From Octopus vulgaris (taxonomy: Eukaryota), in assembly GCA_951406725.2 (NCBI GenBank), contig OX597830.1:35650001-35714000 (forward strand): a stretch of 64,000 nucleotides of DNA, read 5' to 3'. Of this stretch, positions 781-54,495 are shown in pieces. Under the pieces are notes generated by a model. It saw only the letters and a program-made list of their open reading frames with translations, had not been told where the DNA came from and made no database searches. A program made the position numbers and the translations under genes. The stretch's first letter is position 1; each line of letters begins with the position of its first letter.

Positions 781-1541
781 TATAAATACTACCCTGGTGA
801 TTGATCATTCGCTTGAATGAGCACATTTTGTGCAAGAATGTTCCACAATATAAATAAGATGGGTATGTCGTGTCACATCTTACATCACTGGATATGTTAT
901 ATCAGCGAAGACTCTCTGGATACATGTTAACTGTCTTTGCATAAATCTCCACTCACTCGGACACCTCTGGTAAATATATCAAGATCATCTTACAACGCCT
1001 TTAAATCCTCTTAAATCTTAAGTTTCTGCCTTTGTTTTTCTATATGTATGTGGGTTTATTTGTCTGTATTCACTCACTAATCTGTGCCTGTGTCTACGTA
1101 CGTGTTAGCGTGTGTGTGAGCGTGTGTGTGAGTGTGTATGCGCAGCGCACGGGTGTGTACACGAACGAGGAATATCAATATCGTATAGCTGTTAATGGTG
1201 ATATAACACTATCCACGAAACCTGTGTTGTTTGTGAAACTATGTATTTGTACTTGGAAAGTTCGTCTCCAAGGTGCAGGCCTGGTTAAGAGTATTTTCTT
1301 TAAGAAGACCATCAGTCGATCTTGCATATAATTTTCTTCAGTTACACATTACTAATGCTGCCAATACAAAAACAAAACTAGAGAAAAAATATACAAAGGC
1401 TAATCTTGATATCTAACTTAACGTGGAAGTTGTGTTCGAACACACACTATTGCCTTACTAACAGAGGATCTCAAAAGGATGCATGATACATGAGAGCACT
1501 CGTAATCGTATTGTTGACAGGCGAGGATCATCTACTTCGGG

Positions 1542-1606
1542 TGCCGGAACTGCCAGATCTCCCGATTTCACCCTACTAAGGATTCGTCAGTAACATTTGT
1601 CCAGCA
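1542..1606 (-). ncRNA. Putative extended type-I hammerhead ribozyme (intact core, AUC cleavage triplet)
   Basis: The minus strand reads TGCTGGA caaa TGTTA CTGACGA ATCCT tagt AGGGT GAAA TC ggga GA TC TGGCA gt TCCGGCA. It has the CUGANGA and GAAA core and the AUC triplet. Stem II is 5 bp, stem III is 3 bp with a GNRA loop, and stem I is 5 bp + internal loop + 7 bp. Confidence 0.65.
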
Positions 1607-1982
1607 GCTCGATAACAGCCGAATCTCCCTTGAGTGATATATTTACCTTGAGAGGATCTCTTTATGCACCACGAGTTTTTATCATAGATCTTCTCATGGT
1701 AACTACCGCAATAATCGGTGTTCTAATACAATCGCCACGCTAAGTTAGAGATCAAGGTTACCTCTTGGTATTAACACTGTTTCTGTTTTTCTTAAAATGT
1801 TTTTGCTTTTTTAAATATACAATTTGACCCTGACTTTGTCGTAGGTGTAAAGATCAGAACATAACGAGACAGCATAGATTCTGCTATGAATCCTATCCAA
1901 GACATCTTGGGATTACGATAACTCACGACTAATGGAATGGATTCGAGCTCCAGGTTCTGCAGCAAACACCATCGCTTATTCT

Positions 1983-7984: not shown

Positions 7985-9728
7985 CATTATTATTATTATT
8001 ATTAGTGAAATGTAAGTGCAGACGAATGGCAGGAAATTTGGAGATTTTAATATATGGTATAGAATGTCATGGCCACATAAAGTCTTAAGATCAAATCTCA
8101 TAGACTCGTACATCTTTTAATCTGTTGCCTCTGTATCGCAGAATAAATATTCTCGACAATTAAAAGTATCATATTGCTGTGAATAATATATGTAATGTTC
8201 ATATGTACGTAGAACAACTCTTGCTAGCATATTTCCTCGCGGAGAAACCTCTCAAAAGAGCTTGTATGTTGAAAATAAGGTGTAATTACACAGAATATTG
8301 ATGGCTATCTGTCATCAATATTCTGAGCAATCATTCTAAGTTATCATTATGATCCGGTGAGCATGTCTGGTCATTCTGAGCTAAGCAGTAAAATATCATT
8401 TCCAATACAGAAATCGATAAGCAAAACATTTACGGATTTGTCCGAAAGTAAGCCATGTTATAATTAGATTAATATGCGTACTTGGGAGGGCATATGATTA
8501 AAATACTGAAGTGTATAACAATTGCAATAAATACAGAATCGGCACTAATTGTGTGAAGCCATATTTAATGGAAGCTATCCGTAGATATTCTGAACGCGTC
8601 GTGTGTATTTTACCTTACGAATTCCTTTGAGAAGTTTCTCCGACAAAATATATATTGCGGACACATGTACAGCCTTCATGTAATTCTCTGGTGAAATCAA
8701 TGAAACACTCAGTGACAAGGCTGCACCTGCAATTAAGTGTTTACATAAACACACTTACACACATATTCGTATACACATACGCAGACACACACACAGACAC
8801 ACACGCACATATTGTAACATATAGAAACAACTTCAAAGAATACTCTTTTAAATGTGAATGACTATTTCATGTTCAGTATAAATCGTTTTCCTAAATGTTG
8901 TTATACACACATTCTCAACTTCCCGTTCTATGTTTTCATAGGTATATACATTTATACATACTCACATACTCATACATACATTCGTACATACATAGATACA
9001 GACATATGTGAGGACAGCCATTCTATTCGTAGCTCATTAAGTACACTGCTACGTTCAAATTTTATTTTATTTTCATTTGAGATCTTGCAAATTTTCTTAC
9101 TAACTTCTTACAATTAGTTTGCAAAAATACAGTTCTTAAATCTTCAGTCGACGTTTCCAGAAATTCACAGTCATAGTTTCAAGTTGCAAGATGTATTGTT
9201 TCTTACACGCTCATTGAATTCGGGTAGTCTTTACCGACAGATGTTTTTCTTTTTACCGTTAGAACATGCTTTAGCAGTGATGTGTTTATTTCTTTGTCGC
9301 ATTCATATTTCCAACATTAGTTGTGTTTTATGTCAATGGCCACGTGTTAATTTTTCAATGCGTTTACGTGTTAATTTCAGGATTGTATTGCAATATGATT
9401 AGGGCTTTCATAATTAATGTTGTGTCTTAGAGTACAATATTATAAAATATGTGTCAATTATCCTCACATATTTTCCTGTCTATTTTTGCTTTGCACTGTG
9501 TTGTATTTTTTTGCAATGCATCCGTGACGTGCCTATCTAAAAGTGTCGTCCTGGCGTGCCCAATGTAACAGTTAATGTCCTGAAGTTTGCATCGTTCAGT
9601 TTTACAGTTGGTTTTATAGACCCCGTTGGTCACACTCAGTGGGATCTCATGCTCAAATGCACGTGGTGTATTACCGATAAATGTTTTTTTTTTTACTTTT
9701 GCTGTTTTATGGTGTATTATTAGTTCAA

Positions 9729-9894
9729 CCCTTAAGCATGTAGATTTCTCTGTCAAATGTAATGCTTATTTATTCACACTGTTTTGAAGTAATCATGCAT
9801 AATCTTATAGTTTTGAGATTTCAACGATGTGATTATTTATTTCTAGAATGACATTGTAGTGTGAGAGGATTTGGTACCTATAAATGCTGAAGGG
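9729..9894. mobile_element. Small MITE with piggyBac-like CCC...GGG termini
   Basis: aacccttaagcat vs reverse complement of atgctgaagggtt (1 mismatch). The TTAA TSD is degenerate. Confidence 0.4.
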
Positions 9895-17810: not shown

Positions 17811-18716
17811 TAGGTAGTGGGATCAAAAGGTTCTCGGACTAAATATATTTCATAAAAAAATAACTTATTTACCTAATTTTTAACATCATCTCCTTCGAAA
17901 TAGTCACCTTGCACAGGAATACATTGGTCCCACTATTGGAATCTGGCCTGGAATTCTTTTTTTCCCCAATCGAATCGAGAACCTTCTGCGATTCGCTCTG
18001 GGTCTCGACAATAGTGTTAAAACGATGACCTTTGAGCTGCATTTTCATCTTGGGGAATAAATGGAAGTCCTCAGGTGTTATATCTGGTGAACAATGTGGG
18101 TGCGGAAACGACACCATGTTGTTTTTGGCGAGAAACTTACGTGTGATGAGATCTCGGTCACAGGGTGCATTGTCATAGGAAAGAACCCTGTTCTTCGCGC
18201 TCCACAGATCCGGTCACTTTCACCAAATGTCCTCCCTCAAACGCTACAAAACCTCTCAGTAGAAGTTTTGATTCCCAGTCTAGTCCCGGGGGACGAATTC
18301 TCGATGCATAATACCGTACTCCTGGAGGTAACACTCGTGACAAGTCTTCTAGATCGGTCATCGTTTTCCAGGGACGTGCTTCCGCTTTTGAAGCGACTAT
18401 GCCACCCGAAACATTGCATACGACCCCCTTCTTCGTCACCATAAACTTGCCAACGTATGCTCAATGTCTCTGTAGCAGACGTTGCAAGTTTAACGCAAAA
18501 TTTCGCGTTGGCTCTTTGTTCCTGTCTATGACAAAATCGCAGACTACAGCATACACGCGATCACAAAAGCAAAAATTTCACAACTTGTGAAGTAAACACA
18601 GCGATGTCGCTCGACACATGAAAGTCACTGCTGCTAGCGCTCATTGCGCACGCAACCGTGTGCTGCCATCTGGTGGTGCACTGCATACCTCGTCCGGCAT
18701 CTTACATGCACTCATA
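17811..18716 (-). mobile_element. Internally deleted mariner transposon relic
   Basis: Minus ORFs contain VYGDE..CFGWHSRFKSGSTSLEND (N-terminal HTH) and HPHCSPDITPEDFHLFPKMKMQLKGHRF (HPPYSPDLAPxDF-type motif). Degenerate TA-flanked TIRs. Confidence 0.85.
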
Positions 18717-21700: not shown

Positions 21701-21902
21701 ATATGTGTAAATATATATATATCATCATCATCATATAATGAACGCTGTCCATGCTGGCATGGGTTGCACGATTTGGCTAAAACCCGACAAGAAGGGATTT
21801 CTGTGGCAGCATGCACTGCCTAGCACCGACCACTTTACAAGATGTGGTGGATGCTTTTGTGGAACCACAGATGTGTGGAAAAGACCGAGGAGGGGTTGGA
21901 AT

Positions 21903-22488
21903 GGGCACCTTCTTGGAAAGTTCCGAGGAGGGGCAACTTCCTAGAAAGTTCTGAGGAGGAGAACAAGCAGAACTTCCTGGAAGGTTCCGAGGAGGGGCAA
22001 CTTCCTGGAAATATCCGAAAAAGAAGATGGTAGTCCACTCCCTGTCCAGGTCTGAAGAATTGAAAACTTCCTGGAAAGTTCCAAGGAGGACAGGAAACTT
22101 CCTGGAAAGTTCCGAAGAATAAGAAAATTCTTGGAACGTTCCGAGGAGGGGCAAAGTCCTGGAAATATTCGAGAAAGGGGAGGACAGGCAGCTTCCTGGA
22201 AAGGTTCAAGCCGTGAGCAACTTCCTGGAAAATTCCGAGGAAGACAGGACGCGCAACATCCTGAACAGTTCCGACGAGGCGCAACTACCTCGAAAGTTCC
22301 GAGGAATAAGCAATTTCCTTGAAGTATCCGACGAAAGGGAGGGCAGGCAATTTCCTGGAAATATCCCAGGTAGGGGAGGGCAGGAAATTTCCTGGAATGT
22401 TCCGAGGAGGAGCGAATTCATGGAAAGTTCCGAATCTTGGGCAACTTCCTGAAAAGGTCTGAGGAATTGGCAACTTCCTGGAAAGTTG
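21903..22488. repeat. Minisatellite, ~19 units of ~28-38 bp, core gcAACTTCCTGGAAAGTTccgagga
   Basis: Units were delimited by eye. The quasi-palindromic core is followed by purine-rich linkers of variable length. Confidence 0.9.
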
Positions 22489-22550
22489 AATCCTGCGCTG
22501 AAACTGATTCGTTTTGCGCCGAATCGTGGCATCCATCAGAAATTATACAT

Positions 22551-31590: not shown

Positions 31591-31624
31591 AATGATTATG
31601 ATTATCATCATCATCATCATCATC

Positions 31625-31693
<69 letters not shown>

Positions 31694-31696
<3 letters not shown>

Positions 31697-32803
31697 TAGT
31701 TTTATTTTTATAGCGTGCTTTCACTTCACTACCGAGCGCAGCTCTGTGTGCCTTGGGTATGTGCTGTGATTTGTTGTGATGCTCTGATGGTTATTGTATG
31801 GAAAGTGTTCTGCGTAGGATGTGTGCAGTGCCTAGTAGTGCAATTTTCTGTATGTTATATGTGTTTGTAAGTCCTGGTGTTTTTGTTATGTATTTGTCTG
31901 AATATTTTTTTATCATGCCTAATGCACCTACTATGATAGGAATTGTTTCTGTTTTCAGGTTCCACATTCTAGTTACCTCTATTTCCAGGTCTTTGTATTT
32001 TGAGAGTTTCTCCATTTCTTTTAGAGACACCTTGTCATCTGCCGGTATTGATACATCAATTAGAAAGCATTTTTTTTCTTCATGATCTCTGACAACTATA
32101 TCTGGTCTGTTGGCCTTAATTTCTCTATCTGTGTGTATCGGCATATCCCAGAGTATGGTTGCTTTCTCGTTTTCTGTGACCTTTTCTGGTGTGTGCCTAT
32201 ACCATCTTTTTTCTGTTGTTGTTCCATAATGTTGGCATAGCTGCCAATGTATGTAGGTTCCAACTCTGTCATGTCTGTGAATATATTCTTTCTTAGCCAG
32301 GACTGGGCAGCTAGAGATAATATGATTTATTGTTTCTTGTCCATCTCCACATATTCTGCAGTTACTTGTAATATTTCTTTTCATTACATGTTTTTGGTAA
32401 TTTCTGGTGGGGAGGCTTTGGTCTTGTGCTGCAATTAAAAATCCCTCTGTTTCTACTTTGAGTCCTGAGCTTCTCAACCATTGCTGGGATTTTTCTTTGT
32501 CTATTTCTTTTGCGTTTAGTTTAGTGCAGTATTTACCATGAAGGGGCTTTTCTTGCCATCGTTTTATCATGGCTCGTTGCTGTTCTATTTTTAGTTTGGA
32601 TTTCATTTGTTTTATAGCTTTTGTTGTTTCTTCATCATCTTCTTCTTCTTCTTTGTGTTTATTAGGTGGTATGATTTCTTGTTTGTATTTGTCAGCTTCC
32701 TTAAATACTGAGAACAGTTTTTTGTTTTGCTCGTGTTTTGCTGCTATCTGGATCAGTTTTCCTTCCTTCTGAAGTAGGTATTTTTGCAGTCCTATGGTGG
32801 TTA
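31694..32803 (-). mobile_element. R4/Dong-type LINE, 5'-truncated young copy with open frame (CCHC finger + restriction-like endonuclease)
   Basis: Uninterrupted ORF with ETEGFLIAAQDQ, CRICGDGQETINHIISSC, RHD, ILWD..RPDIVV..LIDVSIP..KLSKYKDL and IIVGALG. ~100-bp 3' UTR, (TAA)n on both sides. Confidence 0.95.
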
Positions 32804-32818
32804 TTATTATTATTATTA

Positions 32819-32898
<80 letters not shown>

Positions 32899-32982
32899 TT
32901 CATTATTATTATCGTTATAAGTATTATTATTATTAATAATATCGTTATTATTATTATTGCTGTTGTTATTATCATTATCATT

Positions 32983-33345
<363 letters not shown>

Positions 33346-36021: not shown

Positions 36022-36862
36022 CAGGGTGCAGTGAATAAACTGTCGCCTAAATTATGCAAAAACGAAAATAATACTGATATCTCATTTTAATAGTAAATTC
36101 ATTCAATAAAATCGCCATTGGCCACAACCACGGCCTCCAAACCACTTCGCAATCTCCTGCTACTCTTCTGGACGGTCTACATGTTTATGTTGGTGAATGG
36201 TGCCATAATCCTTCCCTTCAGTTCACCTTTGGTGTTACAAGGAGTTTTATTGGTCTCTCGCTCAACTGTGCCCCACACAATAATCAAGGGGTTGCAGTTT
36301 GGAGAGTTAGGTAGCCAGATGTTAGGGGCTGGTGTGGTCTCAGAAGTTGTATGACAGCCATGACTGGGCACTCCTACTTGGGTGGCATGATGCAGATTGC
36401 TGCTGCCAGACATAGGGTCTTCCAGCAGCCACTCTCTTGATCCAGAGCGGCACTACCTACTCCAGGCACCTGATGTAGGCGTCGATGTTGAGTGTGAGGC
36501 TATGTGGGAAGATGAATGGAGACATAAAGTCGCCATCATTAGTTATCATTCAAAACACCATGATGTTGATTGGATGTTTTTATTTTTATTAATCTCGGTA
36601 CATGTCCTCAGATTGCACTCCTCAGACTGACACTCAAACACTCTGCAATGTTCCTGTTGGAGCTTCCGGCACGAATGCGGAGCAGTACAGCATGCTATTT
36701 ACAAATTTCTGGTAGAGAGAACTGTGTCAAGGTTCTGTTTTTCTCACAGACGGTGCCCAACTGATCTTTCTAAACTGTGTAGTCGACAAAATCAAAAGCA
36801 AACAATGCGCATGCGTGAAATAAAAAAATATTAACGGGCAGCAATTTACCTATCGCACGCTA
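36022..36862 (-). mobile_element. Tc1/mariner-superfamily (DD37D/maT-like) transposon relic
   Basis: WLPNSPNCNPL..VWGTVERETNKTPCNTKGELKGRI (WPPxSPDxNPLD-type motif). Imperfect TIRs: cagggtgcagtgaataaactgtcgcc vs reverse-complement tagcgtgcgataggtaaattgctgcc. Confidence 0.8.
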
Positions 36863-51613: not shown

Positions 51614-51616
<3 letters not shown>

Positions 51617-51973
51617 TATCAATACCGGCTGATGACAACGTGTCTCTAAAAGAAATGGAGAAACTCTCAAAATACAAAGACCTGGAAATAGAGGTAACTA
51701 GAATGTGGAATCTGAAAACAGAAACAATTCCTATCATAGTAGGTGCATTAGGCATAATAAAAAAATATTCAGACAAATACATAACAAAAACACCAGGACT
51801 TACAAACACATATAACATACAGAAAATTGCACTACTAGGCACTGCACACATCCTACGCAGAACACTTTCCATACAATAACCATCAGAGCATCACAACAAA
51901 TCACAGCACATACCCAAGGCACACAGAGCTGTGCTCGGTAGTGAAGTGAAAGCACGGTATAAAAATAAAACTA

Positions 51974-51977
<4 letters not shown>
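51614..51977 (+). mobile_element. R4/Dong-type LINE 3' end, same young family as the 31694 copy
   Basis: VSIPADDNVSLKEMEKLSKYKDLEIEV..LRRTLSIQ* and near-identical 3' UTR ending actactg(aat)n. Confidence 0.95.
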
Positions 51978-52070
<93 letters not shown>

Positions 52071-53962
52071 TACCAAGGATCAACTCCAAGAGGAGTAAAA
52101 GAAACTTAGCCATGTCATGGATTGACTATCGTAAGGCGTACGATACGATCCAACACTTTTCGATTATGGAATGTATGAACCCATTTGGTGTTGTATCGAA
52201 TGTTGAGCGATTGCGTTGAAAAAGTATGGCGAATTGGAGGACGGAACTGACAGCATACGGAAGAAGTTTAGCGACAGTAGAAATCGGGAGGGGCATCTTC
52301 CTAGGGGACTGCCTTTCCCCACTCATCTTTGTACTGTGTTTGATATCACTAGCACTGATTCTGAGGAAAGAAAAAGCTGGATATGTATTCAAAAGCCACT
52401 AACAAAAAATTTTTTTAATTATTATTGATGGATGACCGCAAACTTTATGGTAAAGATGAAGCCTAAGTCAGTTCCCTAGCTAATACGGTGTATACTTTCT
52501 GTACAGATATCAGAGTGGAGTTCGGACTGAGAAAGTGTGATATGTTAGTCTTGAAGAGAGGCAAAATCAACTGTATGGACGGGCTATCGATGCCGTCGGG
52601 GGAGGTCATGAAGTAGATAGAAGAGACGGACTATAAGTACTTGAGGATTTTGGAAGTGAATAATTTGATGGAGAAACATATGACAGAAAAATTTCAGGTG
52701 GAGTACTTACGCAAACTGAGACTGATCCTTAAGTCAAAATTAAACGGTCGGAATTCGATTGAAGCTATCAACGCCTGGGCGGTTTCACTCCTTAGATATC
52801 GAGCAGGTGTAATCACATGGACAGTAGATGAACTAAACAGCTTAAACAGAAAGACAAGGAAGTTGCTAACTAGATATGGGACACTCCACCCCAAAAAGTG
52901 ACACAGACAGACTGTATGTACCAAGGAAAAGAGGGGGAAGAGGACTTACTGGATGCGAACAAAGCATTAGTGCAGAAGAAAAAAAAAGCATGGTATGTAA
53001 AAATGCCACAGAACCGCTTTTATTAGAAGTAAGAAGGTCAGGCTTGTGTAGGATGACTGATTGCAAAGATAAAGCCCTATACAAGAAATTGAAAACGAAT
53101 GAAACTGAAAATAGGTGAGTAAAGAAAAGAATCCATGGGCAGTTTCATAGAGACGTTGAAGATAAGACAGGCAGAGAAACAAGATGGTTGTGGGTGACTA
53201 AAAGTGATTTAAAACTGGACATTGAGGGTCTATTCTGTCCCGCCCAAAAGCAAGCACTAATAACAAACTACATAAAATACAGAGTAGACAACAAAACGGT
53301 AAGTGATAAATGCAGAATCTGTGGGCAAAATGGTGAAACCGTATGGCATATTACCAGCCACAGTACGCCACTAGCCCAGAAGGAATATAAGAGACGCAAC
53401 GACAATATAGCAGGGCTTGTCCATTGGAAACTTTGCAACAAGTATGGTCTTGACAGAGCAAAACATTAGTACGACCACAAATCCGAAGGCATCATCGAAT
53501 ATGATAATGCAAAGACTCTATGGGATTTTATGATTCAGTGTGACCATGAGATAGAGAAGAGGAAGCAAGACTTAATCTTTATTGAGAAAGGAAGTAAACT
53601 ATGCTGGATCATAGATATAGCATGCCCAGCTGACAACAAGGTATGCAATATGGAAGAAAGAAAAGTCAAGAGATATGACAAGTTATCTTGGGAGGAAAAA
53701 CAGTTGTGATCGATGAAAAAGGTAGTAGTGGTACCAATAACTGTCGGAACCCTGGGAACAGTGAGTAAAAATCTCGAGAAGTTCATGGGACAAATATGGG
53801 CTGCAATAAGGGTGGAGCACTTGCAGAAAGCAGCACTGCTTGGAGCCGCTCGAATACTCCGGAAGGTGCTCGAAAAATAAGACGTGTTGCCTTAGTTCGC
53901 TGGTAGTGAACAGCTGACACCGTAGTACATCTCTAGCGTTAGAAGCTGTGCAATGGCAATCA
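52071..53962 (+). mobile_element. R4/Dong-type LINE, second family, decayed RT + CCHC + endonuclease
   Basis: NLAMSWIDYRKAYD, GIFLGDCLSPLIF, MDDRKLY, LKSKLNGRN..AINAWAV, DTDRLYVPRKRGGRGL, CRICG, IIDIACP and ALLGAARILRKVL, with stops and frameshifts. Confidence 0.95.
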
Positions 53963-53996
53963 TGATAATAATAATCATAACAACAACAACAACAAC

Positions 53997-54032
<36 letters not shown>

Positions 54033-54053
54033 TAATAATAAAAATATAAAAAT

Positions 54054-54495
<442 letters not shown>

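Follow-up and report, generated by a model that had tools for sequence, protein, structure and literature searches.

A hammerhead motif in Octopus vulgaris DNA lies in a worn copy of a 346-nt retrozyme-like repeat

The intronic hammerhead ribozymes of amniotes, HH9 and HH10, are few-copy and deeply conserved. In the usual metazoan form of the ribozyme, helix III is a palindrome, which serves for cleavage as a dimer (PMC4209133). Metazoan non-LTR retrozymes, in the account given in PMC7229834, measure 150 to 450 bp (350 to 390 in mussel, 330 to 350 in axolotl), and both circular RNA and cleavage are reported there as demonstrated. A recent preprint proposes that retrozymes are non-autonomous and derive from Penelope-like elements, and the evidence it presents, co-occurrence and pLTR homology, comes mainly from vertebrates (Li, Clavereau, Pollet, bioRxiv 10.64898/2026.07.22.740005). 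Insertions of Penelope-like elements, as one account describes them, show 5' truncation, partial tandems and an adjacent inverted 5'-truncated copy, together with a 30- to 40-bp tail that usually stands at one end (10.1101/2021.04.23.441226).

We analyzed a hammerhead motif at 1542-1606 on the minus strand of a 64,000-nucleotide stretch of Octopus vulgaris DNA (the window). It belongs to one worn copy of a 346-nt non-coding repeat that is present at many places in the genome, and this repeat is a new family of a known kind, the non-LTR retrozyme. With a probability that we put at about 0.8, the motif is a decayed, truncated and partly inverted retrozyme copy that Penelope machinery likely pasted in and that is now probably inert. 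Most likely it is what remains of a known kind of genomic parasite, and not a gene tamed by the host. Taken alone, the window locus is probably a fossil.

Anatomy of the hammerhead motif

The motif contains the core elements CUGANGA, GAAA and NUH in order. CUGACGA lies at 1584-1590 (N7 is C here and G in 45 of 68 copies), GAAA at 1566-1569, and the AUC triplet at 1558-1556 within the cleavage-site feature at 1555-1558, all on the minus strand; the predicted cut falls between 1556, which is C17, and 1555. The 5' side of the extended stem I reads, on the minus strand, UGCUGGA (1606-1600, distal), CAAA (loop) and UGUUA (1595-1591, proximal), and its 3' side, after C17, reads UGGCA, GU and UCCGGCA, ending at 1542. 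Stem II has 5 bp and a UAGU loop and stands between CUGACGA and GAAA, and stem III consists of 3 bp, AUC/GAU, closed by GGGA (1560-1563). In a constrained fold all three helices form, with the open end in helix I, which is the type I arrangement. The first-pass annotation of this DNA had read the core, strand, stem anatomy, GGGA (GNRA) cap, four G-U pairs and cut site from the letters; the sequence bears out these elements, and the predicted site of the cut holds. It had also taken the wobbles as what a selected RNA fold would show. All four are indeed present, but two are private C-to-T changes of C-G pairs in the family and the other two are the commonest family state.

A type I descriptor returned 1542-1606 as the sole hammerhead in the window. 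The search with Rfam models that had been suggested gave its best alignment with the amniote HH9/HH10 group (RF02275), which shares the type I topology and the bulged stem I. HH9 aligned along the whole motif but scored 18.6 bits against a gathering cut-off of 52 (E 0.16 and 0.02), and no family reached its gathering threshold anywhere in the window. The motif also differs from the amniote ribozymes in being one of many decayed copies. Statistical support for the motif from sequence alone is weak; the 65-mer had a folding z of -1.7, with 15 of 200 shuffles equally stable, and its minimum-energy fold differs from the active fold.

A 346-nt repeat family

We searched the window's own genome (2.8 Gb in 227 contigs) with positions 1500-1660 as the query and obtained 78 candidates. 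Of the 40 matches that were scored, 39 lie elsewhere and show 71-85% identity. The motif had been described as stand-alone and in non-repetitive sequence, a description that does not survive at least 39 further matches at this identity on many contigs. Further queries, taken from other parts of the element, returned 32 of 32, then 67 matches (40 of 1,182 candidates scored) and 41 matches (40 of 1,295 scored); the match counts are lower bounds, and the candidate numbers 1,182 and 1,295 are a first look, not copy numbers. The copy-number check by BLASTN that the first-pass annotation had proposed thus returned a repeat family and not a single copy. After 14 duplicate loci were dropped, 66 distinct loci were analyzed; 29 more were then added, of which 19 were new, bringing the total to 85.

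Sequence common to the first 20 loci was restricted to 300-400 nt, which is the unit itself. Head-to-tail joins define the unit as 346 nt, with the predicted cut at unit position 147, and no frame in it is open beyond 60 codons. Copies that span the ribozyme lie 11-32% from the family majority. With a full-unit query, identity outside the query's own locus reached at most 83% (40 of 1,182 candidates scored), an exact 21-mer of the family majority occurs nine times in the genome, and no near-identical copies were found among the matches scored. The divergence of the copies indicates that the family is old. Its tree is star-like (terminal length 10.2, internal length 1.0). Units within one insertion diverge by 0.256 (27 pairs), compared with 0.273 between insertions, and derived states are shared at 0.035 per column within insertions and 0.015 between them. 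Since within-insertion divergence is about the same as between-insertion divergence, decay after insertion could explain most of it.

In the family, stem III forms a 10-nt palindrome, with the loop ACGT or a CpG-decay form of it in 54 of 85 segments. The GNRA loop was found in one of the 85, the window's own, so that GGGA is private to this copy, and a search with the GNRA pattern gave a single match in the whole genome. Predicted self-pairing is -12.9 kcal/mol for the palindrome and -1.6 for the window version. The first-pass annotation had set the motif apart from Penelope-type hammerheads, naming a palindromic stem III as their sign; that palindrome turns out to be the usual stem III of this family. 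The family palindrome and the window's GNRA loop make a natural test pair for dimer versus monomer cleavage.

On testable features, the 346-nt family belongs with the metazoan non-LTR retrozymes. As in the retrozymes described in PMC7229834, a non-coding unit of this length carries one type I hammerhead and is multicopy, and copies stand head to tail. The unit RNA may likewise be strongly self-paired: folded as a circle, the family-majority unit gave -119.8 kcal/mol (a value without a shuffle control) and a long hairpin carrying the hammerhead. By comparison with that account, the family is old and occurs mostly as one or two units, with no long arrays seen. More than a third of its insertions are inverted, a word absent from the main text of PMC7229834. 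RNA circles and cleavage are shown there and are predicted from genomic sequence for the 346-nt family. The solo monomers and dimers spread across chromosomes, and the proposed use of Penelope machinery, recall the retrozymes of Li et al. as the preprint presents them (10.64898/2026.07.22.740005). The evidence here differs in kind, being insertion anatomy, and our searches found no homologous autonomous element. Because it holds a single hammerhead, the window copy falls outside what that preprint calls 'active', namely two consecutive units (10.64898/2026.07.22.740005).

We found no paper whose title or abstract points to the 346-nt family, which may be catalogued in Repbase, Dfam or supplements. 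A metagenome scan for the family core gave 0 matches. An apparent sister-family motif from contigs of other organisms' runs had no match in the genome and was rejected, as it reads as mixed family copies.

Insertion ends

The 66 loci hold 75 insertions, in 30 of which the segment is longer than one unit; 37 cross a unit junction and 28 are inverted. The longest reached about 2.3 units, and no long tandem arrays were seen among the analyzed loci. Outer 3' ends (n = 103) fell at the AT-rich unit end in 46 cases and at unit positions 295-327, about 20-50 nt short of it, in 38, while none lay within 15 nt of the predicted cut. Outer 5' ends (n = 47) were scattered, with one near the cut. Among the 28 inverted insertions the 30- to 40-nt tail was present on one arm in 20, on both arms in none and on neither in eight, although this last class, like the short 3' ends, may be inflated because BLAST ends erode in the AT-rich tail. 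If the arms were independent, about 3.6 insertions with both tails would be expected (P about 0.02, calculated by hand). Target-site duplications of at least 9 bp were present at 5 of 67 insertions, compared with 3.3% of shuffled pairs, and are not clearly enriched. The inverted arms had suggested a MITE or foldback transposon, a candidate rejected on the grounds that the extent of the arms varies between copies and that tandem joins exist.

The window copy runs from about 1395 to about 1800 and is 5'-truncated and partly inverted. Its direct arm (1395-1642, minus strand) covers unit positions 61-313 of 346, ending about 33 nt before the family 3' end, with no tail. At the inversion junction lies a 22-nt unit fragment (1640-1661, minus strand, unit positions 232-253) that is likely to reflect a template jump. 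The inverted arm (1661 to about 1800, plus strand) extends from unit position 209 to at least 334 and carries the tail; its right end is at 1786 by BLAST and at about 1805 by eye. A 10-bp direct repeat at 1387-1396 and 1813-1822 (plus strand) is a candidate target-site duplication.

The insertion features of the family match the scars described for Penelope-like elements. The likeness takes in the palindromic helix III, 5' truncation, partial tandems, an inverted 5' copy and a 30- to 40-bp tail at one end. The family departs from them in its canonical-size hammerhead, with a helix I of 6 bp plus a long extension and a helix II of 4 bp, in having mostly A-U rather than G-C at 10.1-11.1, and in having no coding body. 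None of 25 loci of a GIY-YIG-like relic family had the 346-nt unit within 1.5 kb, and none of 95 family loci (10 duplicates) carried any of the four GIY-YIG-like peptides used. Since no partner element was found, the mobilizing element is deduced from its scars rather than identified. The window's member of that relic family, a 103-codon frame at 9457-9765 (minus strand), resembles a Penelope GIY-YIG domain by eye, without a GIY-YIG match in Pfam; elsewhere in the genome it matches 30 decayed sequences, with identities of 35-52%.

We propose that tandem units would have been transcribed, with self-cleavage at unit position 147 that probably took place in hammerhead dimers formed through the stem III palindrome, and that the unit-length RNA likely became a self-paired circle. 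A fixed AT-rich point, some 200 nt away from the cut, may then have served as the priming site for a Penelope-type endonuclease and reverse transcriptase. The distance of the 3' ends from the cut would fit a circular or multimeric RNA template and not a cut linear monomer. Copying that ran past the unit junction would yield tandems of more than one unit, and second-strand priming or template jumps would yield the inverted arm, with a tail on one arm only. In the window copy, drift would by chance have turned ACGT into GGGA while the core and stems stayed readable. The family adds genomic support to a route that has been proposed and little shown, in the form of retrozyme copies with Penelope-specific scars.

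Core constraint and the history of the window copy

Copies with an intact core are common in the family, at 49 of 85 segments overall and 18 of the 41 that were not picked by ribozyme. A segment needed at least 50 aligned ribozyme columns to enter these counts (62 of 130 were left out in the first set and 33 of 62 in the later set). Among segments retrieved with non-ribozyme queries we counted 47 core changes against 80.8 expected (41 segments pooled, p 3e-5), made up of 30 against 48.0 expected by base (24 segments) and 17 against 29.5 (17 new segments). The sets retrieved with ribozyme-containing queries, which are biased, gave 4 against 42 and 7 against 29 expected. The free N7 varies in 23 of 68 cases, as against 15 of 203 for the three core Gs. 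Across the family, changes in the core are constrained. Having about 40% fewer changes than expected fits poorly with neutral decay after insertion; if a single template had given rise to the arms of an insertion, almost all divergence would have to be neutral decay, which is at odds with a constrained core. Any one of four causes could account for the constraint: a mixed pool of RNA templates, mild selection acting on many copies, the mutation context, or bias in the alignment.

Covariation over 20 pairs, in the 44 of 68 segments without gaps or extreme decay, did not rise above shuffles. A compensatory change from A-U to G-C at the base of stem II occurs in 7 of 85 segments with linked changes, marking a subfamily. 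Loci L030, L120, L123, L131, L132 and L140 belong to this subfamily with the canonical G10.1-C11.1 pair and have changes at model columns 165 and 188; the subfamily may be the older form. At column 38 of alignment A1, the last base of loop II, an A was changed in 0 of 66 segments and is invariant in the 44, making it a candidate tertiary-contact base. In the window copy this A is drawn into the fifth stem II pair.

The window copy differs from the family majority by 17-22%. Between its two arms, 28 of 99 sites differ and two derived states are shared, so that most changes probably arose after insertion. Changes are about equally dense in the ribozyme (11 of 65) and in the rest of the arm (6 of 35 and 32 of 146). 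The long stem that flanks the ribozyme keeps 24 of 37 pairs, the fourth lowest of 54 copies, several of the lost pairs falling beyond the 5' end of the window copy's arm. Including the flanks lowers the predicted active-fold share of the window copy about 1,000-fold, from 7e-4 to about 1e-6, and leaves that of the family majority at 6e-4; these shares are relative values from a model without tertiary contacts or Mg2+. The folding z of the window copy, -5.5, is inflated by its inverted arm.

The Penelope-type ends could also have been left if the copies were shed terminal repeats (pLTRs) of a decayed or unfound autonomous Penelope-like element. Most genomic motifs have been reported as single elements, probably from truncated elements (PMC4209133), and retrozymes are derived from pLTRs in the scheme put forward by Li et al. 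(10.64898/2026.07.22.740005), both of which favor such an origin. However, 37 of the 75 insertions run upstream into a previous unit and not into coding sequence, the 20 loci compared have no common flank, no GIY-YIG-like peptide lies near the family loci, and the hammerhead has full size and a stem I in two parts, unlike the minimal type, so that we consider a pLTR origin quite unlikely. The same ends, being Penelope-like, speak against a fold that arose by chance in a plus-strand Tc1/mariner transposase relic or derives from one. The first-pass annotation had raised this from the opposite-strand peptide. The plus strand does read ARSPDFTLL here, but RSPD occurs in 4 of 60 copies, the majority reading RSRD with a stop 10 codons later, and the codon-position rates of 0.154, 0.141 and 0.157 (p 0.66) show no pattern. 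Pfam gave no match, a weak test in that it likewise missed two transposase-like relics in the window, and BLASTP produced no alignment to those two relics. The lack of a codon pattern, the stop, the rarity of RSPD and the Pfam and BLASTP nulls largely refute a transposase source, which we regard as barely credible. Nor do the related copies keep transposase codons in place of the ribozyme core, an outcome that had been named as decisive against the ribozyme; the core is constrained and the codon positions show no pattern.

Domestication, suggested in the first-pass annotation as a possible monomer-active self-cleaving RNA, would mean host selection after insertion, with the GNRA cap replacing the dimer palindrome. 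Neither the core nor 19 of the 20 family pairs are broken by the 11 changes in the 65 nt, a pattern with P 0.0043 under simulated neutral decay (P 0.0003 when the pair set is fitted to the window), and the window copy is the most changed of 13 fold-sparing copies among 68. It gains a fifth stem II pair and the GNRA loop relative to the family, and the arms suggest that most of its changes came after insertion. The locus is also present in sequencing runs of other organisms (contigs from four runs were examined): a contig from organism B covering 1407-1695 has 2 differences at 289 sites, 0 in the 65 nt and 2 in the other 224 nt, too close to test selection, and one from organism D stops at 1537. 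No RNA run was listed as holding 1220-2000, a result that says nothing about expression. Against this, the copy was picked for intactness among about a thousand candidates in a family where 49 of 85 copies keep the core, it is multicopy and not single- or few-copy, its flanking stem is decayed, and a competing fold is predicted in context. No host-gene Pfam domain was found in 106 open frames of at least 62 aa (20 kb upstream plus the window's first 30 kb), a search that short exons would escape; the single match was a mariner domain. The sparing of the fold is still a hint of local selection; domestication itself seems to us very improbable. Alternatively, the family may have diverged within a viroid-like pool of RNA circles selected for cleavage, from which a Penelope reverse transcriptase joined different molecules in one insertion, the window variant cutting as a monomer and possibly being kept by the host. 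Such a pool would explain the star-like tree, arms as unlike as strangers and the constrained core, and we rate it as unlikely. If the core constraint does reflect an RNA-level pool, it would bear on RNA-to-RNA steps in retrozymes, as these are treated in PMC4209133 and PMC7229834. A retrozyme copy left to decay after a probable Penelope-mediated insertion remains our preferred reading.

Several other elements were seen in the region. Segments at 31601-33014 (minus strand), 51614-52069 (plus strand) and about 53900-54376 (minus strand) come from the 3' part of a single non-LTR retrotransposon family; they are 96-97% alike and show (ATT)n/(AAT)n runs and a weak zf-RVT match. A related non-LTR reverse-transcriptase element has left older, broken pieces at 52600-53900, with frames at 52617-53469 and a weak zf-RVT match. 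By eye, 17869-18590 (minus strand), 36097-36452 and L116:7996-8322 are mariner- or Tc1-like transposase relics, and the upstream transposase relic in locus L116 has a Mos1 HTH match. Also by eye, an open frame at L102:1718-2485 (minus strand) resembles an adhesion-type receptor in its seven-transmembrane part. Positions 21780-22540 hold a degenerate tandem array of short, GC-richer units (GGAAAGTTCC-like) with open frames on both strands.
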